A stretch of DNA of 64,000 nt from Thermodesulfobacteriota bacterium (GTDB lineage: Bacteria > Desulfobacterota_D > UBA1144 > Nemesobacterales > CSP1-2). The notes beneath the pieces were generated by a model, which was not told the origin of the DNA, did not search any database, and saw only the letters and a list, made by a program, of their open reading frames with translations. How positions within the stretch are numbered: position 1 is the first letter of the stretch; each line of letters starts with the position of its first letter. This document shows positions 1-62,704 of this stretch, in pieces. The position numbers and the translations under genes are program-made. The stretch is from positions 37,763 to 101,762 of the forward strand of contig JBAUII010000078.1 of the NCBI GenBank assembly GCA_049682815.1. The letters run 5' to 3'.

Positions 1-1656
1 AGATATACCTATTACCGGTATACCCCAGAAGACTGCAAAGTAATCGAACTTCTCCCAATAAGTCCACCTGTCCAGTTTTGGACGAGCACCCAGGTATAAG
101 AACCAGCGTACGTTTCGATAGAGATCGACTAGGTCTTCCCTTCGAGGAATCATGGAATTAGGACCATACAGAAGGGTTATGTCGCCCTTTGAAAATATCT
201 TGTCCAGCATATAGCCGAGATGAAAACTAATGTAACCCAATGTCACTATTGCAAAGAATCTATGGAAGTACCTTGTTACCTCTACTCCACCGAGTATACC
301 TTCCAGAATTCTCCCCCACCACGTGTAATTATACATAAGCGGTAGTCCCGTCGCAGCAAGTCCTAAGAAACTAATAATAACGGCGACGTGGGTAATTCGA
401 GTGGGAAGGCTAAATCGGAGAACATACTTGCCACTGCTCCAGCGAGTAGGAACCTCTCCCTTCGCAACTGCTACAGCCGACCGTTGAAACCAAAGAACCA
501 TATGGAGCCCAAAAAAGCCAAAAACTGAAATAAGGAGCCAATTCATCAAGGAATAGACGTAATAAAGCAGAGGAGATCTATCCGGATCGCCGGGATCAGC
601 ATGTGGGTCATAGCTTACAAATTTCTCACTTATATCAGCGTGACACCTGCCACAAGTATTAATCAGATTGGCAGGGTAGACTGAAGAAAGTGGGTTGTCA
701 TTGGGGAGATTCAGGTGAGGTGTATGGCAGTCTGAGCATTTTGCAACCTGAACAAACCCTAGCGACGTTGACTGCCCGTGAAATGTATCCTGATAGGTAA
801 GCGCCCTCTCCCCATGGCATACACTGCACTCCTCTGATATCTGAAGCCTGAATCCAGCTGACACGGGCTCCGTGATCTGATGGGATTTGTGACATGTCGT
901 ACACACTGGTCCCACGTCAAGTCCTTCCTTCCAGAGCTGTCCATGTATACTCCTCTCATACTCATCATAAATTCCAAGGTGACACTTCTTACAGGTAAGT
1001 GGTATATTCTCTCTGTAGACACTCGAGTTTTTGTCAGTTTTTGGCCTTATGTTATGTGCACCATGGCAGTCGGAGCAAACCGCGGAGACAACTAATCCAC
1101 TGACAAGGACGCCACGGCCGTGAACACTTTCGCTGTAGCTCTCGATAAATTCCGGTGACGGGAGAGGGTGCTCCTTTGTGATCTTTTCGCTTGTATGGCA
1201 ATTTGAACATGTCGCAGGAATATTCAATGGGTTTATACGAGATTTAGGGTTATCCTTTGGAAGAATACCGTGTGAGCCATGACAACTCGTGCAAATTGGG
1301 GCATCGCTATCACCCCTCGCTATCGCTTCACCATGTATGCTTTCGGAGTATTCTTTTGCAATCTCCGGGTGACATGAAGAGCAATCAACCTTATTCGGAA
1401 TTTCCTCGTGGGGTATTTCTGTTACGTCCTGATGGCAATCTGTGCACTCGAAGCCACTATGGATTGAGGCATCTAAGAGTCCTTTATCAACCAAGGGTTC
1501 CATCGTTTCGTGACACACAAGACAGTCTTCGCTTTTAGGCTCTTCAGAACGGGAAGCAACTGTGAAGGGACAAAGAATTAAGAAGAAAAGAGTTAAAAAA
1601 AACAATGACTCATTTGATCGCGTAACTTTTATCACATGTTGCCTGTTCTTTAACAT
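1..1656 (-). CDS. Multiheme cytochrome c (11 CxxCH motifs) fused to a C-terminal diheme b-type cytochrome domain (HydC/FdnI/Ni_hydr_CYTB-like). The 3' end runs off the window. CbcL-like.
   Basis: The minus-strand frame is open from position 1 to about 1656, so it is absent from the complete-ORF track. Reverse-complement reading gives CLVCH, CTDCH, CSSCH, CTSCH, CSNCH, CSDCH, CKKCH, CTTCH, CSVCH, CSDCH and CGRCH. These are followed by four or more hydrophobic helices carrying conserved His (LHMVLWF, THVAVII, RYFHRFF..FHLGYM). The N-terminus MLKNRQ..SLFFLTLFFLILCPFTVAS is signal-like. The start is assigned to the ATG at 1656-1654. Confidence 0.7.
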   Translation of the reverse strand, partial: MLKNRQHVIKVTRSNESLFFLTLFFLILCPFTVASRSEEPKSEDCLVCHETMEPLVDKGLLDASIHSGFECTDCHQDVTEIPHEEIPNKVDCSSCHPEIAKEYSESIHGEAIARGDSDAPICTSCHGSHGILPKDNPKSRINPLNIPATCSNCHTSEKITKEHPLPSPEFIESYSESVHGRGVLVSGLVVSAVCSDCHGAHNIRPKTDKNSSVYRENIPLTCKKCHLGIYDEYERSIHGQLWKEGLDVGPVCTTCHKSHQITEPVSAGFRLQISEECSVCHGERALTYQDTFHGQSTSLGFVQVAKCSDCHTPHLNLPNDNPLSSVYPANLINTCGRCHADISEKFVSYDPHADPGDPDRSPLLYYVYSLMNWLLISVFGFFGLHMVLWFQRSAVAVAKGEVPTRWSSGKYVLRFSLPTRITHVAVIISFLGLAATGLPLMYNYTWWGRILEGILGGVEVTRYFHRFFAIVTLGYISFHLGYMLDKIFSKGDITLLYGPNSMIPRREDLVDLYRNVRWFLYLGARPKLDRWTYWEKFDYFAVFWGIPVIGIS

Positions 1657-1830
1657 ACAGCCAATAGTTTGGTGCAACCGGTATCTTTGACCATCAAACC
1701 AAGACGTGCGGGAAGCTTATGCATGTTTTTTCGCCTGAATCCTTTCATTTCGTTACGAAATCAAACGGATTTTTAAGTCACATTTTTAAGACATATTTTT
1801 AGCTTCCTATAACCCCTAACTTAAAAATTT

Positions 1831-3033
1831 CTACGTTTCAAGTTTAACCTCTGCTTCCTTCCATGGCGGCAACAGAGCAACGAGGATGTACAGAATAATA
1901 AATGGGAGCGTTAGAAAGAATAACGCCACCAAGAGCCCTTCAATTCCGAGCAATTCCATTTTGTAGGTTGTAAGTCCTCTTAAACTCTTGGAAAATAATT
2001 GCCCCCCGATAACCACATTCCATCTTATACTAAAGATTCCTATCAGGGTAAGAATTGCACTTCCAAAGTAGATAAGGCGCCTTAACTCATCAGGAAGGCG
2101 CGTCAACTTTGTCCATGCCAACAAAACCATTGGAATTATAGTTCCTAGCAGCATCTGAATCACAACCATACTGATGAACAGCTTACTGATTAAAAGCTGG
2201 TACAGTATTTTTATGGATTCTTCTGATTCGTAAATGCGGTGAATGAAGTCAAGGTTTTCCAGTGAGAAGTCCAGTATCATTGCATAGAGCAAAAAGGAAG
2301 CGAGCTTATCCATACAGGCCATATCCACGCTTCTTCGTCGAAAGAGAGTAATAACCATATAGAGTAACATGACAAGCGCAATCCCCGATACTATAGCGGA
2401 AAACAAAAAAACTACGGGCATAAGCACACTGCTCCACCAGGGATTCGCCTTTACAGAGCCAAAAATAAAACCCACATAACCATGAAGGAGGAAAGCGGAT
2501 GGAATACCGATGATGGTTATAAATTTTGCCGCCTTTCTGTCAAACTGAAGAGATCTTTCTGAGAGGTCTGAAGCCCCAAGCGTTAAGATGAGGTAAATAA
2601 ATCTTTTCAACCCCTTTTCTTTAGTAGACCAGACAACGATATCCTTTCTGTACTCAAACCACAATTCCACAAGAAGGACGACCAAGAGATACCAGCCATA
2701 TACAAAGCCAAACATGGCCATAGCGGACCTGAAATTGGGTGTGAGAAAAATTTCATAGGCCCGTTCGGGATGTCCTAGATGAGCCACAAGAGGAAGAGGC
2801 GCGACAATGAGGAAAGCAAGCGCAGTGAGAAGCGAAAGCCGGTAGGTAGGCTCTACCGCCTTAACATTAAAAACCCTTTCCAGGGAAGCAAGAATAAAAG
2901 CACCTGCTACAAGACCAGTAAGATAGGGATAAACAACAATGAGGATGCTCCAATGGAGCTCAATCTCATTGGGATAGATGAAGCCTGTAATTTCTTTAAG
3001 GGAAATGGCAAGTCGCTCAAGTAAGGGATCCAA
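1831..3033 (-). CDS. NrfD/PsrC-family polytopic membrane subunit (quinone-interacting, heme-less)
   Basis: A 400-aa ORF with 8-10 predicted TM helices and NrfD-like character (LHWSILIVVYPYLTGL..., HLGHPERAYEIF). It lies directly downstream of an NrfC-like FeS gene. Confidence 0.75.
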   Translation of the reverse strand: MDPLLERLAISLKEITGFIYPNEIELHWSILIVVYPYLTGLVAGAFILASLERVFNVKAVEPTYRLSLLTALAFLIVAPLPLVAHLGHPERAYEIFLTPNFRSAMAMFGFVYGWYLLVVLLVELWFEYRKDIVVWSTKEKGLKRFIYLILTLGASDLSERSLQFDRKAAKFITIIGIPSAFLLHGYVGFIFGSVKANPWWSSVLMPVVFLFSAIVSGIALVMLLYMVITLFRRRSVDMACMDKLASFLLYAMILDFSLENLDFIHRIYESEESIKILYQLLISKLFISMVVIQMLLGTIIPMVLLAWTKLTRLPDELRRLIYFGSAILTLIGIFSIRWNVVIGGQLFSKSLRGLTTYKMELLGIEGLLVALFFLTLPFIILYILVALLPPWKEAEVKLET

Positions 3034-3846
3034 CTAAGTAACCTCCTTGTCTAGATTCGCATAGTAGACCTTGGGTTCTGTATTAAGATAGGGCTTTAAG
3101 ACACCAATATTGTTGAATCGGACAAAACGCGCAAGGGGATTGTTGCGAGGTTTTACTTCTCCAAAAGTTCTTGCTCCAGTGGGACATACCTCTACGCACG
3201 CAGGCTGCAATCCCTTTACGATTCTGTGATAGCAAAATGTGCATTTGTCCGCCGTCTTTGTCTCGGGATTGAGATATCTCGCTCCATAAGGACAGGCCTG
3301 AATGCAGTAACGACATCCTATACAGTAATCTTTATCAACGAGGACAACGCCGTCTATTGACTGGTATGTGGCTCCAACAGGACAGACCTGCACACAGGGT
3401 GGATTATTACATTGATTACATAACTTTGGAACAAAAAACGTGCGTAGGATTTCCTTTTCACTAATGGGTTCAGGAAAACCGTGCATTCCACCTTCAGGAC
3501 TGTCCACACTCGTTTCCCCATCGACTGTAATAGTATATCTTTCCACCCAGGTTCTAAAGAAATAGGGTTCCTTAGGAACATTATTTTCAATCTTGCACGC
3601 CTCTACACATCGTCCACACCCTATGCACTTATCGATGTCAATACCCATAGCATAGTAGTGCTCCCTCGGATTGTATTTCCCATAAATACTTTCCAATGTG
3701 GAAGTGCTTTCACTAGATGCCTTTTTCAAGAAGGGGAATAGCTTAGAAAAAAGCCCGCCAAGAAAAAACCCGGAGGGGATTATGAGAAGGCTTTTAAGAA
3801 AGTTCCTCCTATTTGTTACGTTATCAAGAAGCTCTTTAGCATTCAT
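3034..3846 (-). CDS. Tat-exported 4x[4Fe-4S] ferredoxin subunit, NrfC/PsrB/HybA-like
   Basis: Twin-arginine motif RRNFLKSLLI. Four Cys clusters are present: CIGCGRCVEAC, CNQCNNPPCVQVCP, CIGCRYCIQACP and CTFC..CVEVCP. It overlaps the upstream cytochrome gene at ATGA. Confidence 0.8.
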   Translation of the reverse strand: MNAKELLDNVTNRRNFLKSLLIIPSGFFLGGLFSKLFPFLKKASSESTSTLESIYGKYNPREHYYAMGIDIDKCIGCGRCVEACKIENNVPKEPYFFRTWVERYTITVDGETSVDSPEGGMHGFPEPISEKEILRTFFVPKLCNQCNNPPCVQVCPVGATYQSIDGVVLVDKDYCIGCRYCIQACPYGARYLNPETKTADKCTFCYHRIVKGLQPACVEVCPTGARTFGEVKPRNNPLARFVRFNNIGVLKPYLNTEPKVYYANLDKEVT

Positions 3847-4592
3847 TGCTTCTCATCCTCCTTTGTGCGCGCTTCAGGATAATGGGGGTAGTGACACTCC
3901 CAGCACAAAAAACCATTGCCATGGGTTTTAATGTCGACACGCGGAATTTCAGGGGAACTTTCGGCTTCCTGTGCGTGGCACTGTCCACAGAATTCTCTAT
4001 TCCTCGGTTTATCCGGCAAAGCCATCCTTGGGTTTAATTTATGCTCTTCCTTCGCTTCGTGGCATCGAGTGCAGGCTAGGGGTGCGTGGGGTGACACAAT
4101 TTTAGTTCGAGCGATTTGCGTGTGGCATGGATCGCATTCTTCGGGCGTGACCGGAGGAACCGGATCATGGGGATTATGACAGAAAATGCAAGGCTTACCC
4201 GGATTATGCCTAACAGGGTCAATCTGTGGGAATCCTGTGGGTCTCGTGGGATTATATCCATGACACAATGGACAATAGGCGCGTTTTCTTGGTGCAGGGG
4301 GTTTGTACTCATACGGGTCCTGGGTATGGGCATAGGCAGGCCCATGGCATACTTCACAGGCGACCCCCCGATGGTATGATTTGTCTTTCAAAACGTATAT
4401 ATCATCATGGCATTCGGTGCATGCAGTTTCCCCGCCATACTTAATTTCCCTGGAGACTGCGGATTGTAATGAATCGGCACGATAATGACCGTATTGCCCA
4501 AAACTTGCGGGCATAAGAAAATGGCGGACAATTAGGAAAATGAAAATCAAGACAATAGAAAGGGCGAGAAGATATTTTATCTGTTGGGGCAT
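3843..4592 (-). CDS. Octaheme c-type cytochrome with N-terminal membrane anchor
   Basis: The 249-aa ORF contains 8 CxxCH motifs (CTECH, CEVCH, CPLCH, CIFCH, CDPCH, CTRCH, CGQCH, CWECH). An N-terminal hydrophobic helix YLLALSIVLIFIFLIV is present. Confidence 0.8.
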   Translation of the reverse strand: MPQQIKYLLALSIVLIFIFLIVRHFLMPASFGQYGHYRADSLQSAVSREIKYGGETACTECHDDIYVLKDKSYHRGVACEVCHGPAYAHTQDPYEYKPPAPRKRAYCPLCHGYNPTRPTGFPQIDPVRHNPGKPCIFCHNPHDPVPPVTPEECDPCHTQIARTKIVSPHAPLACTRCHEAKEEHKLNPRMALPDKPRNREFCGQCHAQEAESSPEIPRVDIKTHGNGFLCWECHYPHYPEARTKEDEKQ

Positions 4593-4826: not shown

Positions 4827-5483
4827 CTACGTCGAGACCTTTCTTACGTATATATGTCTCGCAATTTCATCATCTATGGCAATATCTGTTTCTCCAGCTC
4901 TCAATACATATGCAGGTTGTTTTTGGTGGAGGACGATCTCCGCTCCAGGAATGATTCCCAGGTTGGTGAGTTGATGCAATCTTCTATGGTGCCTTGGTAC
5001 TAAAAAGATTATCTTTACCCTATCTCCGGGAATTACTTTGGCGAGTGGAACGACAAATTCTTTGGTTTCCTCTTTAAAAATTCCGCAGCATTCTCCCGGA
5101 GGGATCGGCTTTTCATGTGGACAAAACCTGGGATGTCCAAGGAAAGCGCAAATGGATTCCGTGACCTCTGAACCGAGAATATGTTCAAGCTCACAGGCCG
5201 TAGAGTCCATTTCACTGGAGCCTACCTGGAGTATGTCTTTAAGAAGCTTCTCCGCTAGACGGTGACGCCTGACTATCATTTTCGCCCTCGCGTCGCCCAT
5301 TATGGTAAGGCTTATTTTACCGTCAATATCACTTATAAGATCTGCTTCCAGAGCACATCTGATAGCTTTTTTCACGTCTTTATTCCAAGACCTTATGTAG
5401 ATTGTTTCTTCGTCTTGGATGCCTTCCTCCCTGAGCTTCCAGATAAGCTCAAGCAGTTCATCGCTTTCTTCATCGTATTTCAT
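4827..5483 (-). CDS. DtxR/IdeR-family metal (iron)-dependent transcriptional repressor with C-terminal FeoA/SH3-like domain
   Basis: The N-terminal wHTH and metal-binding regions resemble DtxR. The C-terminal part (VVPLAKVIPGDRVKII...GIIPGAEIVL) is FeoA/SH3-like. The gene sits downstream of feoB. Confidence 0.8.
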   Translation of the reverse strand: MKYDEESDELLELIWKLREEGIQDEETIYIRSWNKDVKKAIRCALEADLISDIDGKISLTIMGDARAKMIVRRHRLAEKLLKDILQVGSSEMDSTACELEHILGSEVTESICAFLGHPRFCPHEKPIPPGECCGIFKEETKEFVVPLAKVIPGDRVKIIFLVPRHHRRLHQLTNLGIIPGAEIVLHQKQPAYVLRAGETDIAIDDEIARHIYVRKVST

Positions 5484-5692
5484 GCTCTTCCCTCTTGTTT
5501 AAAGAATTTTTTTAGCCACAAAATAAGTCTTGACTCCTGGGGGAAGGAGTATCCGCATCTCGGGCAGCAGACCAACAGGCAGTCTCCTATACTTATCTGG
5601 CAGCTTATGCATCTTTCCCTTCCCTCTTCCTTATAAAATTCCTCTCCACACAAGGGGCAGGAGATTAGATTCCGAGGCTCCACAGTATCCAA
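5480..5692 (-). CDS. Small Cys-rich zinc-ribbon protein, possible Feo accessory
   Basis: The 70-aa ORF carries CPLC..CISC..CCPRC. It overlaps the feoB 3' end by 28 nt and the dtxR start by 4 nt. No RBS was evaluated, so confidence is low. Confidence 0.4.
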   Translation of the reverse strand: MDTVEPRNLISCPLCGEEFYKEEGRERCISCQISIGDCLLVCCPRCGYSFPQESRLILWLKKFFKQEGRA

Positions 5693-7629
5693 TTCGTCAT
5701 ACCTCCCACAATAATGGCTATGAAAAGAACTATCGCGACTATAATAAGGGCGGTTCTGAGCCCTTGTTCCTTTATAATGATTAGAAAGTTGGCAACACAG
5801 GGGACAAATAGCGTAATCGTAACAAGACTTACTAAAACCTGATGGCTGCTCAAGTATCCGCCCTGTTGAAGATCGAAAAGACCGGCAGCACCGTAGTCTC
5901 TTCTCAGGAATCCGATTAAAAAGGCATTCGTAGCCTCTTTGGGAAGGTCAAGGAATTTTACTACGACCGGTGAAGCCAGATTTTGTAAAAATCCAAGAAC
6001 CTTTAACCTATCCAAGACAAAAAGAATTATCGTTCCCAAGACAAACAGTGGGACCGCTTCTTTCAAATACCATTCGAGTCTCGCAACAGTCTTAATGATT
6101 ACGTTACCAATCTGTGGAATCCTTATGGGCGGAACCTCAATGATAAGATCTCGGCTTTCTCCTTTTACGAAGTAAGAAGCAAGGAAGCCAACTGTAAAAA
6201 GAACAATACAAATTTCTACCCCCCAAAAGAAAATACCCCACCGAGGTAGAGTAGAAGCCATAGCAAACACCACAGCCAGCTGGGCCGAGCACGGGATTCC
6301 TACAGCCAGAAGAAATATCACAATTAGCCTTTCCTTTTTCGTCTCGAGCATCCTAGTGGTAAGGGTTGCCATTGTGTCACATCCCAGCCCCAGTACCATC
6401 GGGAGTACAACTTTTCCATTTAGACCCATTAACTTAAACACCCTGTCAACCATAATGGCCAGCCTTGGGAGGTATCCGGAATCTTCGAGGATACTAAAAA
6501 AGATGAAAAATGTGCAGATTACGGGAAAGATTATTGCGAGCGAGTATGTCAGCGCCATAGTAATTATTCCAAAATCGCCTACGAGAAAATCAATCAATAT
6601 CTTGTAGGGAATAATCTTGGGTATGGCTATTTTAAAAAAGGGGTTTATATATCCTTCAAAGACGGTTACCTCCAAGAAATCAACGAATGTTCCTGCCCCC
6701 AGTTTTCCCACAAAGAGGTATGCGAGGTAAAGTATTAGAATTAATATAGGGATCCCAAATAGAGGATGAGTCGATGTCCGTCCTAAAAGATCCAGGGTTC
6801 GGTTGTCTGATTTAAAAGAAGGAGTTGATACCTTCTGAACGATTTCTCTTGCGAGCTCAAGCCTCTTCAGACCGATGAAATAGCTTATAGGATATTCCCT
6901 GGAGCCGAGCTTTGAGAGTGGATCAAGTCCGGCAATCGAGTCTAGCTTTTCTTTAGGAATTCTGCTAATAATGTTCTCATCCATGTTGCAGTCGCCTGAT
7001 ACAATAGAAAGACCTATAAATCTTGAGAAATGAGGGTTTGATAGAATTTTTTTCATTTCGTCTAACATTCCTTCTATAGCTTGAGAGTAAGAAACTCTCA
7101 GTTGAGGGATAGTCGAATTTACAAGTTCGTTCTTAATTCCTTCTATTCCTTTTCTTTCGATAGCCACAGTCGGAACGATAGGAACCCCAAGTTTCTGAGA
7201 GAGCTTTGCTATGTTAATGTCGACTCCTCTGTGTTGCGCTTCATCCATCATATTCAACACTATGAGTAGGGGAAGTCCCATTTCTGCAATCTGGGTTGTT
7301 ATATACAGACCCCTCTCCAGGTTTTTAGCGTCTATAACCTGAATTATAAAGTTAGCTTCACCTTCTAATAAAATATTTCTAACAACCCTTTCGTCTTCCG
7401 ACGTCGGCGTCAGGCTATTAATCCCGGGCGTATCGATAAGAGAAATCGTTTCTGACCCGATTTTCATCTCTCCCGAGGTTATCTCGACCGTTGTTCCGGG
7501 ATAATTTGAAACCGTAACGTATCTCTTGGTAAGCGAACCAAAGAGTAAGCTCTTTCCGACATTTGGGTTACCAATTAGAGCAGCCTTCTTTGGATGAGCC
7601 GGGTTCTCAGACTTGGTTTTGTTAAACAT
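5665..7629 (-). CDS. feoB: Ferrous iron transporter FeoB (G-protein domain plus membrane permease)
   Basis: The N-terminal GTPase has G1 GNPNVGKS and a DTPG motif. Long polytopic C-terminal domain; 654 aa. Confidence 0.9.
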   Translation of the reverse strand: MFNKTKSENPAHPKKAALIGNPNVGKSLLFGSLTKRYVTVSNYPGTTVEITSGEMKIGSETISLIDTPGINSLTPTSEDERVVRNILLEGEANFIIQVIDAKNLERGLYITTQIAEMGLPLLIVLNMMDEAQHRGVDINIAKLSQKLGVPIVPTVAIERKGIEGIKNELVNSTIPQLRVSYSQAIEGMLDEMKKILSNPHFSRFIGLSIVSGDCNMDENIISRIPKEKLDSIAGLDPLSKLGSREYPISYFIGLKRLELAREIVQKVSTPSFKSDNRTLDLLGRTSTHPLFGIPILILILYLAYLFVGKLGAGTFVDFLEVTVFEGYINPFFKIAIPKIIPYKILIDFLVGDFGIITMALTYSLAIIFPVICTFFIFFSILEDSGYLPRLAIMVDRVFKLMGLNGKVVLPMVLGLGCDTMATLTTRMLETKKERLIVIFLLAVGIPCSAQLAVVFAMASTLPRWGIFFWGVEICIVLFTVGFLASYFVKGESRDLIIEVPPIRIPQIGNVIIKTVARLEWYLKEAVPLFVLGTIILFVLDRLKVLGFLQNLASPVVVKFLDLPKEATNAFLIGFLRRDYGAAGLFDLQQGGYLSSHQVLVSLVTITLFVPCVANFLIIIKEQGLRTALIIVAIVLFIAIIVGGMTNWILWSLGI

Positions 7630-9300: not shown

Positions 9301-9915
9301 CGAGAAGAAAATTGACGATGCCTGCTTCTAATTTTCCATAAAGCTCTCATCAAGGGTTAGCAGACTTCTGGAGAGTATAAAGCCATTGAGACCCCGCTTA
9401 TTATTGATATAGGACTCGAAGATTTCGAAAACCTTTCCTATGAAAAAAAGGGGCGATCTATATCACCAATCACTCTTTGAATCAGTTGAATAAGTTAGGT
9501 TTATACATTGCAGCCGATTCATATTCAGCTAAGACATTGGGAATACGTTCATATTATATTGGTATGAAATTTGCAATCGTTTTAGTAGTCAAATGATAAT
9601 GAGAGGGAATAATACGGTAAGTGTTATTTTGATCCCAGTTACTTATTGGTGGATTCAGGAAGCGATGGCTGTTCATGGAACCTGGAAACGCTGTGAATCA
9701 CCAGTTCGGGTTTTGCTATTCCTTCTCACTACGCCATCTATGATCGGCTTAATTAGGTCGGGTTCTGGGACGCGAGACGGAAGTTCAATAGAGTATTTGG
9801 GTTCTGCTTTGCAAGTTCTAATGACATCCGATATAATTGATTCGAAATCTATTCTGGGGTCTTTGAGTTTTTAGTAGAAAAAGATTAAATAAAATAGATT
9901 TTACTCGGGTTAATC

Positions 9916-10575
9916 ATGAATCTCCTTTTAGCTCTGACTTTTATATCAATGCTTGGTTCGCTCTATGCTTCATTTATTTACGCGCCGACCGAGAGGATCA
10001 TGGGACCGATCCAAAAAATTTTTTATTTCCATATGGGAACCGTTTGGGTCGCCACAATTTCATTTGTAATCGTGTTTGTTGCAAGTATACAGTATCTGAG
10101 AAAAGAAAGTCGCAACTGGGATATTCTGGCCTACTCTTCTGCTGAAATAGGGGTGGTTTTTATCACGCTTACGATAGTATCGGGTAGTATTTGGGCAAAA
10201 CCAATCTGGGGGACCTGGTGGACTTGGGATCCGCAACTCACTACTACGTTTATTCTCTGGATTCTCTACATTGTTTATATGATAGTGCGTTCATCTGCGG
10301 GTAATGATATTAGGAAGGCAAAATTTGCCGCTGTTTTCGGGATTATCGCGTTTTTAGACTTGCCGCTTGTTTACATTTCGGCGAGAGTTATGCGTGGAAT
10401 CTCCCCGGTTGTGTTTGGATCCCGTGGGGGTGGTATTGCGCCGGAGATGATGGTAGCATTGCTCGTTACACTAGTAGCTTTTACTTTTTTGTTCATCTTG
10501 ATACTTAAGCATAGAGTAGAACTAGAAATCATGAAAGATAATATCCTTAGGATTAGATTAATGGAGGCAAAGTAA
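9916..10575 (+). CDS. ccmC: Heme exporter protein CcmC (System I cytochrome c maturation)
   Basis: Six TM helices. The tryptophan-rich WWD-type motif WGTWWTWDPQLT is present. Confidence 0.85.
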   Translation: MNLLLALTFISMLGSLYASFIYAPTERIMGPIQKIFYFHMGTVWVATISFVIVFVASIQYLRKESRNWDILAYSSAEIGVVFITLTIVSGSIWAKPIWGTWWTWDPQLTTTFILWILYIVYMIVRSSAGNDIRKAKFAAVFGIIAFLDLPLVYISARVMRGISPVVFGSRGGGIAPEMMVALLVTLVAFTFLFILILKHRVELEIMKDNILRIRLMEAK

Positions 10576-10581
10576 AAGCAG

Positions 10582-10725
10582 ATGTCTTATCTTTTCTGGT
10601 CGCAAGTAATTTTTTGGATTGTACTTTTGCTATATGTTTATTATCTTATTAGAAAAAACCATAACTTGAAAATTCAGTTAGAGTCTATCGAGTCTTCTCT
10701 GAATTCGAATGAAGGAAGTCGGTAG
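10582..10725 (+). CDS. ccmD: Probable CcmD (small single-TM heme-exporter subunit)
   Basis: A 47-aa ORF (MSYLFWSQVIFWIVLLLYVYYLIRKN...) sits between ccmC and ccmE. It has a single hydrophobic helix followed by basic residues. It is below the ORF-track size cutoff. Confidence 0.45.
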   Translation: MSYLFWSQVIFWIVLLLYVYYLIRKNHNLKIQLESIESSLNSNEGSR

Positions 10726-10752: not shown

Positions 10753-11169
10753 TTGATGCTAAAAGGAAAGACAAAATTCATAGTAGCAATCACTGTGATC
10801 GCAGTTGCTATAGCATACCTTGTTTACGGTGGCGTCAATGATACGATGATCTACTATCTTACCGTTCAGGAATTGAAGGACAAGGTACCTTCAGTGTATA
10901 AGCAAAAAGTAAGGGTCTCGGGAAAGGTTGTTCCCGGATCGATAAGGAATGAGATTGATGGAAGTCTAGAGTTTACGATTGCGGACGGGGAAGAAACATT
11001 GGATGTAAAGTATAAGGGAATAGTTCCGGATATATTTAAGGACGACGTCGAAGCGGTCGTTGAGGGTCTATATACACCGGATAACGTATTTGTGGCTAGT
11101 TTGTTGTTGGCCAAATGTCCCACCAAGTACGAATCCACAGATTCTTTAAAAAGGTCTGAAAATATATAA
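10753..11169 (+). CDS. ccmE: Heme chaperone CcmE, variant type with CxxxY (LAKCPTKY) in place of the canonical HxxxY heme-binding motif
   Basis: N-terminal TM followed by an OB-fold domain (VRVSGKVVPGSI...). The C-terminal motif has Cys where His130 normally occurs. Confidence 0.8.
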   Translation: MMLKGKTKFIVAITVIAVAIAYLVYGGVNDTMIYYLTVQELKDKVPSVYKQKVRVSGKVVPGSIRNEIDGSLEFTIADGEETLDVKYKGIVPDIFKDDVEAVVEGLYTPDNVFVASLLLAKCPTKYESTDSLKRSENI

Positions 11170-11170
11170 A

Positions 11171-13171
11171 ATGGTCGAAACTGGAAGTATTTCTATATTT
11201 TTAGCTTTTATACTCTCCGTCTACGTGATATTTGCTTCGGTCGTTGGTGCGAAAACCAGAAGGAATGATTTAATCAAAAGTGCCGAGAACGGTTCACTTG
11301 CAGTCTGCTTTCTTCTAATCATAGCAGCCGTCTCGTTGATACATGCTCTCCTGAATCTAGATTTCAGCCTTAAATATGTCGCCTTAAACGCCAGCAGCGA
11401 TCTCTCTACTATTTACAGGATAACAGCATTGTGGGCGGGCCAGGCTGGATCCCTGCTTCTTTGGTGCCTAATACTCTCAGTATATACATCCCTTGTAGTA
11501 ATTCAGAACAGGAGACGAGGCAGATTCACACCATTTGTTATCGCAACACTCGCTGCTGTTTCGACCTTCTTTGTATTTCTTATAGCCTTTGTCGAGAGTC
11601 CTTTTGAAAAGCTACCTTTCGTCGCCGAGGAGGGAAGGGGGCTAAACCCGATTCTGCAGAATGGCTACATGGCGATTCATCCTCTCACCTTATACCTCGG
11701 TTATGTCGGAGTCACAGTACCCTTTGCATTTGGGATGGGTGCTCTTCTGAGCGGCAAGTTGGATGACGAGTGGATAAGACAATGCAGAAAATGGGCATTG
11801 CTTGCATGGACATTCTTAAGCCTTGGTTTGTTGTTGGGTGCAAGGTGGGCCTACTTGGAACTCGGTTGGGGTGGCTATTGGGCATGGGATCCCGTGGAGA
11901 ATGCCGCATTTATGCCATGGCTTGCCGGAACAGCGTTTGTTCACTCGGTAATGATTCAAGAAAAAAGGGGAATGCTGAAGAAGTGGAATTTATCGCTGAT
12001 AATACTCACCTTTTTCCTGGCAATATTTGGCACCTTTGTTACCAGAAGCGGGATAATTTCCTCGGTTCATTCGTTTGCCCAGTCAGACATTGGCCCCTAT
12101 TTTCTGGGTTTTATAGGTTTCATACTTATTTTCTCATTTGCAATGTTCACTCTTAGATTAGATGATCTTAAAAGCGATAATCATTTCGACTCTATTCTAT
12201 CAAGAGAGAGCGCTTTCATATTTAACAACCTTCTTTTTCTGGGTGCCGCTTTTACCGTTTTCCTGGGAACAATATTCCCGATAATATCCGAACTAATTAC
12301 GCGGAACAAGATTCTTGTTGGTCCCCCCTATTTTAATAAAGTGAATGTTCCGATCGGTTTAGTATTGATACTTCTGATGGGAATCGGTCCGTTAATTTCC
12401 TGGAGAAAGGCCTCAAAGGATAATTTAGTCAGGAATTTCACGTTTCCAGTAGCAATCGGAGTTCTGACATCTGTAATCTTATTCGTTTTCGGAATCAGAC
12501 ACATTTATGCTCTTATTTCTTTCGGCCTGTGCGCGTATGTAACTGCAACCGTGTTTGTCGAATACTACAGAGGGATAAGAGTCCGAGTTAGAAGAGGGGA
12601 AAATTATTTGCGAGCCTTCGGGAGACTCGTATCCAAAAACCGTAGGAGATACGGTGGCTACATAGTCCATCTCGGAGTTGTTTTGGTAGTGATCGGTATA
12701 ACTGGCTCATCTGTTTTTGTTAAGCAAAAAGAGGCAACACTGAAACCAGGGGAATCCATGAGCGTTGGTGATTTTACTTTGAGCTTCGGTGATCTCAACC
12801 AGTATACGACAGATGCGAAACATGTGACAGCCGCTAGCCTCTCAGTATATAATGGCGAAAGAAAGATCGGAGCAATCGTTCCTGAAAAGAATGTGTATAT
12901 TTACTCCGGAAATCGTGAGATCAATCAAGAAACTGAGGTTGCGATTCTCTCTTCATTTACACATGACCTCTATGTAATACTTTCAAGTTTTCAAGATGGT
13001 AGCGCTAGCTTCAGGGTTTTAATAAATCCAATGGTATCGTGGATCTGGGCCGGCGGCGTGGTTCTACTTTTGGGGGCAATCGTTACTATGTGGCCTACTC
13101 CCAGCAAAAAGGAACAGGAAGTACTTGTCAGATATAGTATAGGATCAAAGGACAGGACGGCAGAAGTTTAG
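11171..13171 (+). CDS. ccmF: Cytochrome c-type biogenesis protein CcmF (heme lyase component)
   Basis: 666 aa and polytopic. WWD-type motif LGWGGYWAWDPVEN. The start codon follows the ccmE stop by 1 nt. Confidence 0.85.
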   Translation: MVETGSISIFLAFILSVYVIFASVVGAKTRRNDLIKSAENGSLAVCFLLIIAAVSLIHALLNLDFSLKYVALNASSDLSTIYRITALWAGQAGSLLLWCLILSVYTSLVVIQNRRRGRFTPFVIATLAAVSTFFVFLIAFVESPFEKLPFVAEEGRGLNPILQNGYMAIHPLTLYLGYVGVTVPFAFGMGALLSGKLDDEWIRQCRKWALLAWTFLSLGLLLGARWAYLELGWGGYWAWDPVENAAFMPWLAGTAFVHSVMIQEKRGMLKKWNLSLIILTFFLAIFGTFVTRSGIISSVHSFAQSDIGPYFLGFIGFILIFSFAMFTLRLDDLKSDNHFDSILSRESAFIFNNLLFLGAAFTVFLGTIFPIISELITRNKILVGPPYFNKVNVPIGLVLILLMGIGPLISWRKASKDNLVRNFTFPVAIGVLTSVILFVFGIRHIYALISFGLCAYVTATVFVEYYRGIRVRVRRGENYLRAFGRLVSKNRRRYGGYIVHLGVVLVVIGITGSSVFVKQKEATLKPGESMSVGDFTLSFGDLNQYTTDAKHVTAASLSVYNGERKIGAIVPEKNVYIYSGNREINQETEVAILSSFTHDLYVILSSFQDGSASFRVLINPMVSWIWAGGVVLLLGAIVTMWPTPSKKEQEVLVRYSIGSKDRTAEV

Positions 13172-13236: not shown

Positions 13237-13764
13237 TTGGAAATAATTATCTTATTGGCGATTGTGATTCTTACGGCAGTCTTTATAACGTTACCTTTCT
13301 TCAGAAAAAATACCGAAGTAGAAAACCCCATTGAGCAGAAATCTAATCCTATTGAAAACCCTGCTTTAATAGAGTTGAAAAAGCTTACCTCTGAAAAGGA
13401 ATTACTATACACGGCGTTGAATGATATAGAATTTGATTACGGACTCGGAAAACTATCGAGAGAAGATTATGATGAGCTTAAACGAGAATACCAAGCAAAA
13501 GCTGTGTCCGTACTGAAAGAGATAGACGAAATTAGTAAAGGTCTACATTCTACAGAGTTAGAAGATGAATTAGAAAAAGAGATAACGGCGATAAGGAAGT
13601 CAAAATCACACGATGAAAATGAAATCGAAGATGAAATTTTGAAAGCCCGAAAACAGCACAACGATAAAAATAGATATCTAACATGTATTAATTGTGGGAG
13701 GCAATACAGCGCAGGGGATCTTTTTTGTTCAAGGTGCGGTATCGGCCTAAAAGATGTCAGCTAA
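13237..13764 (+). CDS. Membrane-anchored coiled-coil protein with C-terminal zinc ribbon (CINCG...CSRCG), function unknown
   Basis: N-terminal TM helix, charged coiled-coil region, and CxxC-N12-CxxC at the C-terminus. It is co-oriented with ccmF and overlaps the next gene by 11 nt. Confidence 0.5.
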   Translation: MEIIILLAIVILTAVFITLPFFRKNTEVENPIEQKSNPIENPALIELKKLTSEKELLYTALNDIEFDYGLGKLSREDYDELKREYQAKAVSVLKEIDEISKGLHSTELEDELEKEITAIRKSKSHDENEIEDEILKARKQHNDKNRYLTCINCGRQYSAGDLFCSRCGIGLKDVS

Positions 13765-15241
13765 GGTACTTAATTTCGAAGGAATAAATAATTTGTTTGT
13801 TATCTCGACGATAGCATTTTTGCTTCTTTCGTCTACGGTCTTTTTCGGAGTAGATATCTTTGCTCAGGTGGATGCCGAGAAGGCGGATCTTGGAAAGGAT
13901 CTATTTATCCAAAATCGATGCGTTAATTGTCATACAATTGGCAGGGGTAGATTTGTAGGCCCGGACCTGGCAGGGATCAGCAGCAGATACAGTAAAGATG
14001 AAATCAAGCAATGGATAGAGAATCCTCAACAGGTGTACCAGGCCAAGGGTAAAATGCCCATAAACGAGGGCTATCCTCCGATGCCTCCGCTACAGGTTCC
14101 GCAAGCTCATATTGACGTCATTGCAGACTATCTTTTTACTAAAAAACCCGTTCAATCTACAAAAGATTATGGTGATATTAAGGGTAGTGTCACGAACAAG
14201 ACTGGTGACGAGCCACCCGTTGGAATCGAAGTTGCCCTGCGTGAAATGTTAGGAGATCGTGTTACGGATGAAAAAACACTTATGACAGACAAAAATGGAG
14301 CTTTTGAATTTAGAGATTTACCCTGGAACCGTAGCTATACGATTACCCTAAATTATAGGGGCACCGAATATGTAACGGATAAGTTGGTTTTTTACCCGGA
14401 TGAGGATACGAAGACTATTGAGCTACCCGTATATGAACCAACCGAAAGTGACAGTGAGATAATAATAAAACAAGCTCATATGATCTTACAGGTCTCTACG
14501 GACTCGATTTCGGTCGCAGAATTATTGATGTTTGAAAACAGAGATAAAAAGATATACGTCGGTTCTGACGTGGTTGATGGGAAAAGGGAGACCTTAAAGT
14601 TTCGTCTACCCAGTGATGCCAGCAATATTCAGTTCATTCATGGCATTACAAGTGAAAACGTTGTTCAAACCGAATCTGGATTTTCGGATACGTCTCCGGT
14701 CTGGCCGGGTGCTAGAAGGGTGGTTTACACCTATACAATTCCATTTAAATCCGGGAACAATGTGATCGAAGACAGGGTGAATTATCCCACTGATAGTTTC
14801 CTGCTTCTTATTTCCGATTCGGCTGAGAAAGTGACTGTGGAGGGCCTTAGTGGAGGGGATGTCGTAGATATTCAAAATGAAAAGTTTGTTCAGTGGACTG
14901 GCAGCAATCTAAAACCTGGCTCTTCAATAGTGGTAACTATAAATAAATCGTTTGATCGTGAATCGATCGCTAAGTGGGCTGCATTTTGCGTGGTTTTACT
15001 TGTTGTTGGGGGTGGAATCCTATACGCATTTGTTTTCAAAGGAAAGGGGTTTGATAGAAATGAAAGCAAGAAAACTTTGAGTGATATTGAAAAGGAAAGG
15101 GCTATGTTGATACAGGACATTGCGGAGCTCGACGATAGATTTGAGAGTGGAGGGTTGGATGAGGAAATATATAGAAGGGCGCGTGCGGAGAAAAAAGGGA
15201 GATTAATTAAACTGGTTCAGCGAATAGCTGAACTAAGTTAA
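13754..15241 (+). CDS. Membrane-anchored monoheme cytochrome c domain protein with a beta-sandwich (carboxypeptidase-regulatory-like) domain, a second TM helix and a C-terminal coiled coil
   Basis: N-terminal signal/anchor, then a class-I cytochrome c fold (CVNCH ... KMP), then GSVTNKTGDEPP...NGAFEF. A second TM (WAAFCVVLLVVGGGILYAFVF) and a charged coiled-coil tail follow. Confidence 0.6.
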   Translation: MSAKVLNFEGINNLFVISTIAFLLLSSTVFFGVDIFAQVDAEKADLGKDLFIQNRCVNCHTIGRGRFVGPDLAGISSRYSKDEIKQWIENPQQVYQAKGKMPINEGYPPMPPLQVPQAHIDVIADYLFTKKPVQSTKDYGDIKGSVTNKTGDEPPVGIEVALREMLGDRVTDEKTLMTDKNGAFEFRDLPWNRSYTITLNYRGTEYVTDKLVFYPDEDTKTIELPVYEPTESDSEIIIKQAHMILQVSTDSISVAELLMFENRDKKIYVGSDVVDGKRETLKFRLPSDASNIQFIHGITSENVVQTESGFSDTSPVWPGARRVVYTYTIPFKSGNNVIEDRVNYPTDSFLLLISDSAEKVTVEGLSGGDVVDIQNEKFVQWTGSNLKPGSSIVVTINKSFDRESIAKWAAFCVVLLVVGGGILYAFVFKGKGFDRNESKKTLSDIEKERAMLIQDIAELDDRFESGGLDEEIYRRARAEKKGRLIKLVQRIAELS

Positions 15242-16015: not shown

Positions 16016-17545
16016 TTACTTTGTTTGTCCGGCGGTGAAATAAGATGCAATTTCCTTTGTAAGTCCTTGAACCGTGTATGTTCCTGAAATAATCTCAGGT
16101 TCGATTCCAAAACTTCTTATCGTCTCGGCTGTTATTGGTCCAATACATGCAATCGTCGATCGCGAGATGATTTTTTTATCCCTTCCAATCATCGCGAAGA
16201 AGTTTTTAACGGTCGATGAACTTGTAAATGTAATAACATCTATGTAACCGTTCCGGAGCAACTTTCTAACCTTATCGATTTTCAATTTTCCCGGCATCTT
16301 GGTTTCGTAGACGGGAAATACATCGACACGGGCGCCCATTTTTCTGAGTTTCATTGGAAGTATTTTTCTCGCTATCTTTGCCCTGGGTATAAGAACCCGA
16401 CTTCCCTTAACATTGATTTTCTCGAAAAGCTTTATTAAACCTTCAGCCCTGAACTCTTCAGGAATCAAATCCACCTTAATACCCATCTTGTTTATCTCAT
16501 TTTTTGTTTGTTCTCCAATGGCTGCGATCCTTATACCCTTGAGGTCCCTTACATCGCTTTGCTTTTGCCTGAGCCTTTGGAAAAAGAAGGTTACCCCGTT
16601 TACACTCGTAAAAATAAGCCAATTGTAGCGGTCTAAATTCTCAATCGCCTTATCGAATCTGTTCCAAGTCCTGAGAGGTGCCACGTCGATAGTGGGAAAC
16701 TTAATTACCTGTGCTCCTTCCTCTTCTAGGAGTTCGGCAAATATTCTTGCCTGGTTTTTGGCCCTAGTCACCAGAACCGTTTTACCGAAGAGGGGCTTTG
16801 ATTCAAACCAATTTATCTTATCTCTTAAATTAACCACGTCGCCGACCGCGATGATCGACGGGGAAGATATTTTCTTTTCTTTTGATAAGCTAACGATATT
16901 CCCTATAGTTCCCGTGAGCGTTGATTGATTTGGGAGAGTGCCCCAAGTTATAATGGCCACCGGGGTCTCAGGTGACTTCCCCATCTCGATTAGCTTTTTC
17001 ATATTCTGTTCCAGTTTTTCAACTCCCATGAGGAATACCAGTGTTCCTATCTTAGCCAGGGCTTCCCACGGCAGCGAAGTTTTTACCTTTTTTGGGTCTT
17101 CATGGCCTGTAACTACTGCAAACGATGACGAATAATCCCTGTGTGTAAGCGGTATCCCGGCATACGACGTCACCCCTATGGGAGATGATACACCCGGAAT
17201 TACATCAAACCGAATACCGTGCTCTGCCAGTTCAACCGCTTCCTCGCCCCCCCTTCCAAATATAAATGGGTCTCCCCCTTTGAGCCTTGCAACGATTTTC
17301 CCCCCCAGTGCTTTCTTGGTGATTAGCGTGTTGATTTCCTTTTGCGGCATCTCCTTATGGCCTCTTTTTTTCCCAACATATATAATTTCCGCTCCTTCTT
17401 TAGCAAATATAAGCAGTTCTGGGTTTACGAGGTGGTCATATACTATTACTTCCGCCCGCGCCAAGAATTTCTTTCCCTTTAGCGTAAGTAGTTCCGGATC
17501 TCCCGGACCAGCACCAATGAGATGCACTATTCCCTTTTTCATCAT
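16016..17545 (-). CDS. Bifunctional uroporphyrinogen-III C-methyltransferase / uroporphyrinogen-III synthase (CobA-HemD fusion)
   Basis: The N-terminus has the GAGPGDPELLT... SAM-methyltransferase motif. The C-terminal half is HemD-like. Confidence 0.85.
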   Translation of the reverse strand: MMKKGIVHLIGAGPGDPELLTLKGKKFLARAEVIVYDHLVNPELLIFAKEGAEIIYVGKKRGHKEMPQKEINTLITKKALGGKIVARLKGGDPFIFGRGGEEAVELAEHGIRFDVIPGVSSPIGVTSYAGIPLTHRDYSSSFAVVTGHEDPKKVKTSLPWEALAKIGTLVFLMGVEKLEQNMKKLIEMGKSPETPVAIITWGTLPNQSTLTGTIGNIVSLSKEKKISSPSIIAVGDVVNLRDKINWFESKPLFGKTVLVTRAKNQARIFAELLEEEGAQVIKFPTIDVAPLRTWNRFDKAIENLDRYNWLIFTSVNGVTFFFQRLRQKQSDVRDLKGIRIAAIGEQTKNEINKMGIKVDLIPEEFRAEGLIKLFEKINVKGSRVLIPRAKIARKILPMKLRKMGARVDVFPVYETKMPGKLKIDKVRKLLRNGYIDVITFTSSSTVKNFFAMIGRDKKIISRSTIACIGPITAETIRSFGIEPEIISGTYTVQGLTKEIASYFTAGQTK

Positions 17546-26010: not shown

Positions 26011-26490
26011 TTAATCTGTAGCGCCCTTTGTTTGATTGGTGAGGTAATTCTCGAGACCCATCTGCCCGATTTGCTCACGTTGCATTTCTGCCCAATCCAC
26101 ATGATCCTCTTCCATCTTGAGAATGCGGGTCAACAGGTCAACACTGCTCTGGTCACCCACTTCGTGCGCCAGGGCGATGGCATCATTGTAAGCATGCACG
26201 GCTGCAAGTTCAGCATCCTGGTCGCCCGTAATAATTTCAAGGACAGTTGTGCCGACTTTGATCGGATTGAGCTTTGAGACAATCGGTGTGCCCTCTAGAA
26301 AGAGGATACGCTGGATAAGCCACTCAGCGTGGTGCATCTCGTCCTTTGCTTGTCCCTCAATGGCCTTGTGGAGCTTATCATAGCCCCAATTGTCGCACAT
26401 CTCCGAGTGCACCATGTATTGATTGATTGCAGTGAGCTCATCCGCGAGGAGTTGGTTGAGCACTGCCAGTAACTTTTCGTTGCCTTTCAT
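26011..26490 (-). CDS. bfr: Bacterioferritin
   Basis: MKGNEKLLAVLNQLLADELTAINQYMVHSEM... is typical of Bfr. The start is assigned to the ATG preceded by the AAGGAAGG RBS rather than the longer track ORF. Confidence 0.85.
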   Translation of the reverse strand: MKGNEKLLAVLNQLLADELTAINQYMVHSEMCDNWGYDKLHKAIEGQAKDEMHHAEWLIQRILFLEGTPIVSKLNPIKVGTTVLEIITGDQDAELAAVHAYNDAIALAHEVGDQSSVDLLTRILKMEEDHVDWAEMQREQIGQMGLENYLTNQTKGATD

Positions 26491-26559
26491 TTTTTTCCTT
26501 CCTTTATAAGTTGGAGTATCTGTCAAACATAGCATGAGACCAATGACAAAGTCAAAAGG

Positions 26560-57221: not shown

Positions 57222-57295
57222 ACAAATGTTGAAATAAATTTATTTTAATATAGATTTTCACTTCTGATTATCTATGACTATTAGGAGCTCTTGCA

Positions 57296-58543
57296 ATGAC
57301 AGCTACAAATCTAAATGAAGGACAAAGAATAGAAATCAAGAAGGACGATGGAAGTCTTATTGTACCCGACAACCCTATTATTCCTTATATTGAGGGTGAT
57401 GGGACTGGCCCGGATATCTGGCATGCTTCTGAGATCGTTTTTGATGCCGCCGTAAAGAAGGCATACGACGGTAGGAAAAAGATTGTATGGCATGAAGTTC
57501 TGGCAGGAGAGAAAGCATTTGTCGAAACCGGCAACTGGCTTCCTACAGAAACCTTAGAAAGCGTAAAAAGGTATATCGTTGCAATCAAGGGGCCCCTGAC
57601 CACACCAGTAGGTGGAGGTATTCGTAGCTTAAACGTTGCCCTCAGACAGCAGCTTGACCTCTATGCGTGTGTCCGACCGGTCAGATATTTTAAGGGTACA
57701 CCCTCGCCAGTTAAAAGACCAGAATTGATGGATCTAGTAATATTCCGTGAAAACACCGAGGATCTTTATGCTGGCATTGAATGGCAGAGTAATTCAGATG
57801 AAGCAAATATGGTAATTGATTTTCTGCGCAAAAACCTGAATGTAACTATAAGACCCGGCTCAGGAATTGGCATTAAGCCGATAAGTCCATTTGGTACGAA
57901 GAGACTTGTAAGAAAAGCTATACAATACGGGATCAAGTATGATAGAAGAAGCGTAACATTGATGCATAAAGGCAATATCATGAAGTTTACCGAAGGCGCC
58001 TTCAGAGATTGGGGATATGAATTGGCAAAAGAGGAATTTGGTGATGTGACCATTACCGAAGACGAGCTCTGGGAAAAACACGGGGGAAAGATGCCAGATA
58101 GTAAAATTCTTATTAAAGACAGGATTGCTGACAGCATGTTTCAGCAGATCCTGACAAGAACAGATGAGTATGATATAGTGACAACGCCGAATCTAAATGG
58201 AGATTACCTATCCGACGCTTCCGCGGCGCAGGTCGGAGGCCTGGGTATGGCACCCGGGGGGAATATAGGGGATCCCTATGCAGTTTTTGAAGCGACGCAC
58301 GGAACCGCACCCAAATATGCCGGCCAAGACAAGGTAAATCCTGGCTCCGTGATTCTCTCAGGCGTGATGATGCTACAGTATCTTGGATGGAAAGATGCTG
58401 CGGACCTGATTGTCAAGGCTTTGGAAAAAACAATCATTGACAAAACCGTAACATACGATCTCCATAGACAGATCGAAGGCGCAACCCTTCTTAAGTGTTC
58501 AGAGTTTGGTGAGAAGATTGTAGAAAACATGGATCGGGTTTAA
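57296..58543 (+). CDS. icd: Isocitrate dehydrogenase (NADP-dependent, homodimeric type)
   Basis: 415 aa with IcdA-like motifs ([18 protein letters not shown]). Confidence 0.9.
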
Positions 58544-58641
58544 ATGTGAAATAGGTACAGAATTTAATCTCGTCTAAAATTTGGATTCTTAATCTAGTCA
58601 CAGACAGCAATTTAAGAATGAAATCAATCATTGGAGGGTGA

Positions 58642-59586
<945 letters not shown>

Positions 59587-59808
59587 GATTTAAAATCAGA
59601 GTAAGTTATTCTGAAATAAGAATAATCAGACCGAACCACTGTTTTTTAGAATGACATGGATTTCTTATTGCAAGGTTTAACTTCCGCCTTCTTGACTTTC
59701 CATATAAAATTATTATACTTTGACCCCCGAGTATGTGGGAATGAGTTACAAATCTCCTCGTCTCGTTTAGATTCGTTCAACTTCACAAGAAAAATAGGAT
59801 AAATAAAG

Positions 59809-61560: not shown

Positions 61561-61563
61561 CGA

Positions 61564-62702: not shown

Positions 62703-62704
62703 TA

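Follow-up and report, generated by a model that had tools for sequence, protein, structure and literature searches.

A variant of the System I pathway for cytochrome c maturation, designated System I*, was reportedly described by Allen in 2006 and Goddard in 2010. Here we analyze a cytochrome c maturation (ccm) gene cluster within a 64-kb stretch of contig JBAUII010000078.1 (the window), with emphasis on ccmE, the gene for the haem chaperone, whose haem-binding motif contains a cysteine. In System I*, the CcmE of all archaea and of some bacteria has such a cysteine instead of the haem-binding histidine. The delta-proteobacteria form the largest System I* group, the motif seen most often is CPSKY, about two thirds of cases have no CcmH, and CcmI is helpful but not essential (PMC3601427).

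The biochemistry of System I* has been studied in a few organisms. A Desulfovibrio System I* operon is functional when expressed in E. coli, the CcmE of D. desulfuricans binds haem covalently, and a haem thioether, once made, is hard to break again (PMC3601427). In D. vulgaris, on the other hand, CcmE binds ferric haem non-covalently through the conserved Cys127, and the disagreement between the two Desulfovibrio results has been recorded (PMC3884852). In M. acetivorans, where System I* is functional, C120 is required for a haem-stainable CcmE; the E. coli CcmE variant H130C binds haem and cannot hand it on (PMC9084895). Because of this last result, the partner proteins must be adapted to a Cys-type CcmE.

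At the level of sequence, the window CcmE has the feature that defines System I*, not the His130 of canonical System I. We consider it about 85% probable that its gene belongs to a six-gene operon of a Candidatus Dadabacteria genome, ccmC-ccmD-ccmE-ccmF followed by two genes that we name ZnR and CytCPD, and that this operon encodes the haem-delivery and ligation half of a System I* pathway. The gene and its motif are located as follows.

10753..11169, + strand: ccmE, encoding a Cys-type haem chaperone with an N-terminal membrane anchor, an OB-fold domain and an LAKCPTKY tail.
11107..11130, + strand: the LAKCPTKY motif, read from the sequence and aligned to 8ce8_E, 1sr3_A, 2kct_A and 1j6q_A.

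The open reading frame (ORF) of ccmE encodes 138 amino acids from TTG 10753 and 137 from ATG 10756. Database copies of CcmE begin at the ATG, one codon 3' of the TTG, and ATG 10756 is likely the true start. The window protein is 100% identical to P0001. Its assignment to the CcmE family is clear: PF03100 (CcmE) matches residues 33-128 over 98 of 99 profile positions (E=1.3e-27; 96.5 bits, with a cut-off of 24.6), and phmmer matches it to the CcmE structures of E. coli, S. putrefaciens and D. vulgaris. Residues 8-27 are hydrophobic (KFIVAITVIAVAIAYLVYGG) and align, by eye on the sequence, with the membrane anchor of E. coli CcmE.

The position of the cysteine was determined by alignment with CcmE proteins of known structure. 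Residues 119-126 read LAKCPTKY, in which the Cys is encoded by TGT at 11116-11118 and the Tyr by positions 11128-11130; the C-terminal tail is LLAKCPTKYES. In HMMER alignments, LLAKCPTKY is in register with VLAKHDENY of E. coli CcmE (8ce8_E, E=3e-12; 1sr3_A), and the window protein is likewise in register with LAKHDENY of 1j6q_A. The KCP segment aligns with KCP of D. vulgaris CcmE, cysteine on cysteine (2kct_A, E=2.7e-7). Since the alignment with the E. coli protein matches column for column, the cysteine corresponds to E. coli His130 and the tyrosine to Tyr134. The sequence-only reading had placed a cysteine at the haem-attaching position of CcmE; the PF03100 match and the alignments with the E. 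coli and Desulfovibrio proteins agree with it, and in none of the structure alignments does the cysteine fall off the His130 position.

Compared with E. coli CcmE (1SR3, 8CE8), the window protein thus shares the fold, the N-terminal anchor and the LAK[H/C]xxxY register, and it keeps Asp101 and the acidic position 105 of the CcmC-contact surface (PMC6204919), but it has Cys in place of His130. It resembles the Desulfovibrio protein (2KCT) in being an anchored OB-fold CcmE with Cys for His, Tyr four residues on and an aligned KCP; its motif, however, is CPTKY and not the more usual CPSKY of System I*, and its similarity to 2kct is moderate (E=2.7e-7). With the CcmABCEF system of M. acetivorans it shares a CxxxY CcmE, whose cysteine is required there, and, as far as the 64-kb window extends, the lack of CcmH (PMC9084895).

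The cysteine is strongly conserved. LLAKCPTKY is present in all of the 120 best CcmE homologues, which reach down to ~65% identity, and every CcmE of ~65 related loci has Cys at the haem position, with the pattern KC[PAG][ST][KR][YW]. The ratio of non-synonymous to synonymous substitution rates (dN/dS) of ccmE against relatives is 0.06-0.19, indicating purifying selection. Together, these observations show that the cysteine is neither a chance substitution nor a sequencing error. A six-frame motif search of the window found no second CcmE-type motif.

The host of the cluster can be placed through a close relative. NCBI annotates the identical CcmE protein as coming from a Thermodesulfobacteriota metagenome-assembled genome, and NCBI taxonomy treats Dadabacteria as a class within Thermodesulfobacteriota. 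The nearest species-representative genome, hereafter the sister genome, is Candidatus Dadabacteria bacterium isolate MFD05684.bin.1.387. Its contig CAWDVW010000007.1 (727,604 bp) is collinear with the window along 20 kb at 92.5% nucleotide identity, and its CcmE is 98% identical to that of the window. The locus shares with Desulfovibrio a phylum-level neighbourhood (the former delta-proteobacteria) as well as a cluster that contains a (here putative) CcmI-type factor and lacks CcmH and CcmG (PMC3601427). The features that surround ccmE are listed below.

9533..9874, + strand: decayed remains of the 3' part of ccmB, covering residues ~150-207 of a CcmB of 222 aa, immediately 5' of ccmC.
9916..10575, + strand: ccmC, encoding the WWD haem-handling protein (PF01578, E=1.9e-28; TIGR01191 ccmC, E=6.6e-31).
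10582..10725, + strand: ccmD-like gene between ccmC and ccmE, encoding a 47-aa small membrane protein with a single hydrophobic helix.
11171..13171, + strand: ccmF, encoding the 666-aa haem lyase (CcmF_C, E=1.5e-67; Cytochrom_C_asm, E=1.6e-37).
13237..13764, + strand: ZnR, encoding a 175-aa CcmI-N-terminal-like protein with an N-terminal transmembrane segment, a cytoplasmic helix and a C-terminal zinc ribbon.
13754..15241, + strand: CytCPD, encoding a 495-aa membrane protein (Pfam Cytochrom_C, E=6.8e-9; CarboxypepD_reg below cut-off).

From ccmC to CytCPD, the genes are separated by gaps of 6, 27-30, 1 and 65 nt, and the start of CytCPD then overlaps the stop of ZnR by 11 nt; the genes beyond CytCPD are convergent. 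All six genes show dN/dS values of 0.03-0.22 against relatives that are 83-98% identical, consistent with purifying selection. A promoter and terminator scan gave no excess over the shuffled expectation, and Rfam and tRNA scans of the window returned no matches. The ccmD-like ORF matches TIGR04391 (CcmD_alt_fam) weakly (E=0.0055; 16.7 bits, with a cut-off of 24), but it is kept in relatives (dN/dS 0.10-0.17) and matches the C-terminus of a 233-aa protein in locus L004. CcmF is canonical: aligned to its E. coli counterpart, it keeps the WWD motif and every one of the four histidines (E. coli H173, H261, H303 and H491). The archaeal systems lack CcmD and CcmI and have a split CcmF, whereas the window has a CcmD-like ORF, CcmI-like modules and a single CcmF of 666 aa.

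The operon begins with ccmC, and the window contains neither ccmA nor ccmB according to Pfam scans, which covered essentially all of its ORFs of at least 100 aa, and tblastn searches with the E. coli proteins, which gave nothing convincing. The ~750 bp 5' of ccmC nevertheless show degenerate similarity to the last third of CcmB. By tblastn, residues 151-207 of the CcmB of a relative (L008) match window positions 9662-9838 (E=2e-4), and a CcmB-family hidden Markov model (HMM) matches upstream of ccmC with E=0.0014 in the window and E=3.6e-5 in the sister genome (L006/L007). The relic lies where ccmB ends in relatives with contiguous ccmA-B-C. Relative to L006/L007 it carries a 1-nt indel, so it is frameshifted with respect to the 137-aa ORF of the sister genome. 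That ORF, 5' of ccmC in L006, was rejected as a real gene: it has no Pfam match, its only similarity is to the C-terminal part of CcmB, and the window version has a frameshift.

To locate an intact ccmB, we used a CcmE+CcmB chimera alignment over species-representative genomes, with the patterns LAKCPTKY and GFV[SA]VGTLF. Relatives at ~70% CcmE identity have a contiguous ccmA-ccmB-ccmC-(D)-ccmE-ccmF. In all relatives with at least 83% CcmE identity, ccmAB is gone from the locus. On the sister contig, CcmE (L045) and an intact ccmA-ccmB (L037; CcmB PF03379, E=4.6e-29) lie ~51 kb apart on the same strand, with ccmAB upstream, in the order DsbD_N-domain protein, redoxin-fold protein, epimerase, ccmA, ccmB. 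The intact pair indicates that ccmAB was relocated, not lost, and a CcmAB-less System I was rejected on this ground; it also suggests that ccmAB is present in the window's own genome, where by comparison with this congeneric genome it would sit ~41 kb before window base 1. The sequence-only reading that ccmA and ccmB are not adjacent thus holds for the window, but it had missed the ccmB relic that abuts ccmC and the intact pair upstream in the sister genome. Beside the relocated ccmB, L037 12971-14335 (+) encodes a 454-aa protein with a CarboxypepD_reg-like domain followed by a C-terminal cytochrome c domain, the reverse of the order in the 495-aa CytCPD protein.

The degenerate ccmB piece and the departure of ccmA and ccmB from the locus in the closest relatives could also mean that ccmCDEF is what remained, decaying or auxiliary, once ccmAB had been lost, with maturation taken over by System II or by a second, canonical ccm set elsewhere. 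Our view of this genome is confined to the 64-kb window, which gives this explanation some room. We nevertheless regard it as very improbable. All six genes of the operon are undamaged and show the mark of strong purifying selection, the catalytic residues of CcmF are all kept, and an intact ccmA-ccmB lies on the same contig of the sister genome. Pfam scans also found no System II gene (ResB/CcsA) in the window. A functional operon with detached ccmAB, a further difference from Desulfovibrio, fits these observations better.

E. coli CcmC ligates haem via H60 and H184 (PMC10457321). In an alignment of the window CcmC with E. coli CcmC and 80 related CcmCs, His39 (equivalent to H60) and the WGTWWTWD motif are kept, while the H184 position is occupied by Ser, in the motif RVMRGISPVVFG at residues ~155-170. 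All 57 CcmCs of the Dadabacteria clade share this replacement, in the motif R[VLI][MK]RGISPVVFG. Chloroflexi-type CcmCs keep the H184-equivalent His, and ten from Dehalococcoidia have Met at the H60 position. As read from this alignment, the window CcmC departs from the canonical two-His model, and in this it also differs from Desulfovibrio. We found no discussion of a Ser for H184 in the Ccm literature cited here.

This replacement may bear on the chemistry of CcmE itself. The CcmE cysteine might bind ferric haem non-covalently, as an axial thiolate ligand, with no thioether formed, and might in this way offset the missing second His of CcmC. The binding mode of D. vulgaris CcmE through Cys127 (PMC3884852), the poor reversibility of a thioether (PMC3601427) and the invariant Ser of the Dadabacteria clade are all in line with such a role. 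However, the covalent haem binding of D. desulfuricans CcmE (PMC3601427) and the requirement for C120 in haem-stainable M. acetivorans CcmE (PMC9084895) argue for a covalent link, and Chloroflexi-type loci have Cys-CcmE yet keep the CcmC His, so the two changes are uncoupled. On balance we find a purely non-covalent role doubtful.

With respect to the thiol-handling components, six-frame searches of the window for [LIVM]RCxxC and WCxxC found neither motif in a credible ORF. No CcmG or CcmH was found in the window by the Pfam scans or by tblastn with the E. coli proteins, which gave nothing convincing, and no Dadabacteria-type locus contains CcmH within ±10 kb. These searches bear out the sequence-only reading that the cluster has no ccmH and no ccmG. 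That reading had further linked the CxxxY CcmE to the loss of CcmH, as known from archaea and Desulfovibrio. The variant is indeed documented there (PMC3601427, PMC9084895) and the window has no CcmH, but the absence of CcmH does not define it, as about one third of bacteria with Cys-CcmE have CcmH (PMC3601427). Dehalococcoidia-type loci with Cys-CcmE, for example, encode a homologue of the CcmH N-domain after ccmF and ahead of the zinc-ribbon gene. It is found at L065 7030-7545, L057 3857-4366, L079 7180-7704 and in six similar loci, with the motif CQCGC and not LRCxxC.

Upstream of ccmA in relatives (L037 5829-7396, L008 2989-4564) are genes for a DsbD_N-domain protein and a redoxin-fold protein. 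The latter has a single active-site Cys (NPDCPFVQRHY) without CxxC, and for this reason a reading of the gene by ccmA as a standard CcmG is not supported. The two proteins might serve the ccm pathway in thiol-redox chemistry, as a partner of a non-standard type.

The two genes after ccmF form a conserved pair. Family HMMs built from homologues locate ZnR and CytCPD 3' of ccmF in ~60 loci of Dadabacteria and Chloroflexi. The gene order is ccmA-B-C-(D)-E-F-ZnR-CytCPD in Dadabacteria and ccmE-F-(ccmH)-ZnR-CytCPD-ccmA-B-C-(D) in Dehalococcoidia and other Chloroflexi. In the latter, the position between ccmF(-ccmH) and ccmA places the pair inside the operon. ZnR carries the cytoplasmic-helix motif L..IKDIEFDY..GKLS..DY..L, shows dN/dS values of 0.16-0.22, and scores 24.6 bits against Zn_Ribbon_1, slightly under the cut-off of 25. 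An AlphaFold2 model of CytCPD (predicted local distance difference test score, pLDDT, 82.4) shows, in order, an N-terminal transmembrane segment, a monohaem cytochrome c domain (CVNCH), tandem beta-sandwiches, a transmembrane segment and a cytoplasmic helical hairpin.

The large protein of Chloroflexi has ~387 aa and lacks the cytochrome c domain, which indicates that the conserved CytCPD core consists of the beta-rich periplasmic part, the transmembrane segment and the cytoplasmic helix. A profile search of 1.84 billion representatives returned 890 clusters (E<=1e-30, 50% identity), mostly core-only, and no Pfam family covers the core. In one protein, P0443, a double zinc ribbon is fused to the core. 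When the CytCPD model was searched with Foldseek, the top PDB matches were to Ost1/ribophorin I (E=8e-11 to 1e-7, identity 8-12%), which likewise combines tandem beta-sandwiches, one transmembrane segment and cytosolic helices. With TM-scores of ~0.25, nothing points to shared ancestry or function, and the match is kept as a fold analogy only.

Both families also show similarity to CcmI. In the ZnR family, 15 of 26 members match TIGR03142, the CcmI N-terminal domain (best E=1.9e-7). In the CytCPD family, 7 of 27 do so, at the C-terminal transmembrane segment and helix (best E=3.7e-6). In hhalign, ZnR residues 1-99 align with CytCPD residues 406-494 (probability 96.8%, E=2.6e-10). As in CcmI/CycH, a transmembrane segment is followed by a cytoplasmic helix with a shared signature, and the gene lies directly 3' of ccmF or ccmH. 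Unlike CcmI/CycH, neither protein has a tetratricopeptide repeat (TPR): Pfam gave no such match, one protein ends in a zinc ribbon, and in the other the modeled tandem beta-sandwiches stand where CcmI has the repeats, together with a cytochrome c domain in Dadabacteria. We infer that ZnR and CytCPD act as CcmI-like factors whose substrate-handling domain is not a TPR. Since each has a CcmI-N-like module, parts of the CcmH/I type are not wholly missing from the cluster. Relative to Desulfovibrio, the CcmI-type factor would here lack TPR and be split over two proteins.

The presence of a bona fide CxxCH cytochrome c domain in CytCPD, which public annotation names 'cytochrome c', raises the alternative that the pair has no role in maturation and only travels with the operon, one protein being a client cytochrome and the other a small, unrelated membrane protein. 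The TIGR03142 similarity of the window proteins themselves is not significant, which is also in keeping with this. Most family members (~385 aa), however, lack the cytochrome domain, and what the family conserves is therefore no cytochrome. The pair, moreover, stays beside ccmF in two phyla despite rearrangement of the operon, and the CcmI-N matches, the shared module and the fused form P0443 tie the two proteins to each other and to CcmI. A passenger role is, on this evidence, unlikely, and we retain ZnR and CytCPD as candidate maturation factors.

In the mechanism that we propose, CcmC and CcmD would present haem at the periplasmic WWD site of CcmC, as in E. coli. CcmE would then take up the haem via Cys121/122 of LAKCPTKY, with the Tyr at +4 as iron ligand, if its chemistry resembles that of D. 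desulfuricans and M. acetivorans. Release of holo-CcmE would fall to CcmAB, whose genes lie ~51 kb off in the sister genome, and the canonical CcmF would move the haem onto the CxxCH sites of multihaem cytochromes encoded nearby. No CcmH (LRCxxC) would take part. Synteny, remote homology and fold suggest instead that the CcmI-N-like modules of ZnR and CytCPD probably dock on CcmF, and that the two proteins probably handle the apocytochrome through the tandem beta-sandwich that replaces the CcmI TPR.

A broader proposal seems possible to us, and we offer it tentatively: that Dadabacteria and, in its core form, many Chloroflexi use a System I* with an undescribed ZnR+CytCPD module that replaces TPR-CcmI and, in Dadabacteria, also CcmH. 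The hand-over from CcmC to CcmE would then involve a different haem ligation, possibly by the Cys thiolate, as CcmC has lost its second His.

Several points weigh against our assignment of the locus to System I*. Haem carriage by the window CcmE is a prediction. The literature is contradictory on Cys thioether versus non-covalent ligation (PMC3884852), and a thioether intermediate would be carried over to this protein by analogy. The location of ccmAB, and the absence of ccmH, ccmG, a second His-type ccmE and System II beyond the window, were read from a congeneric genome and from flanks of ±10 kb. The E. coli model may need changes before it fits a CcmC without the second haem-ligand His. Finally, the link to CcmI holds at the level of the families: the window ZnR has no TIGR03142 match, and the window CytCPD gives E=0.59 (cut-off 29.3 bits).

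The remainder of the window provides a physiological setting for the cluster. In a respiratory-type set of genes, a partial cytochrome at 1-1716 (-) combines 11 CxxCH motifs with a membrane C-terminus resembling cytochrome b561. The set also encodes an NrfD/PsrC-type membrane subunit at 1831-3033 (-), a 4Fe-4S protein at 3034-3846 (-) and, at 3843-4592 (-), a cytochrome that carries 8 CxxCH motifs. The multihaem cytochromes at 1-4592 (-) are likely clients of the ccm system, and the sequence-only reading of an organism rich in such proteins is matched by the two in the window. Iron-handling genes adjoin the ccm cluster at 4827-7629 (-), encoding a DtxR-type repressor fused to FeoA, and FeoB; a ferritin gene lies farther along at 26011-26535 (-).

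Downstream of the cluster, at 16016-17545 (-), lies a gene for a fused uroporphyrinogen-III C-methyltransferase/synthase (TP_methylase+HEM4). It occupies this position in every relative examined (L003-L011), which suggests a conserved link of haem synthesis with haem attachment. Positions 54534-63058 (+) encode aconitase, isocitrate dehydrogenase, malate/lactate dehydrogenase and a four-subunit fumarate reductase/succinate dehydrogenase of the FrdABCD type, and some relatives (L003) have a nosZ-like gene close to the ccm cluster. Given these central-metabolism genes and the nosZ-like gene, the label 'anaerobe', also part of the sequence-only reading, is not established.

The cysteine in CcmE is thus confirmed, and its interpretation as a variant System I is supported; a Cys-type CcmE as such is a kind that has been known since 2006. 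With this locus, Candidatus Dadabacteria join the known users of a Cys-type CcmE, which serves as a reliable marker that System I*, and not canonical System I, matures the multihaem cytochromes of this organism. The most noteworthy part lies in its surroundings: a CcmI-like pair without TPR, a CcmC without the second His, and a ccmB relic with relocated ccmAB. E. coli needs both His ligands of CcmC, whereas the CcmC of this clade has one of the two. This clade provides natural experiments on two questions: how System I* functions without CcmH, and how a link between Cys and haem can form and later be undone.

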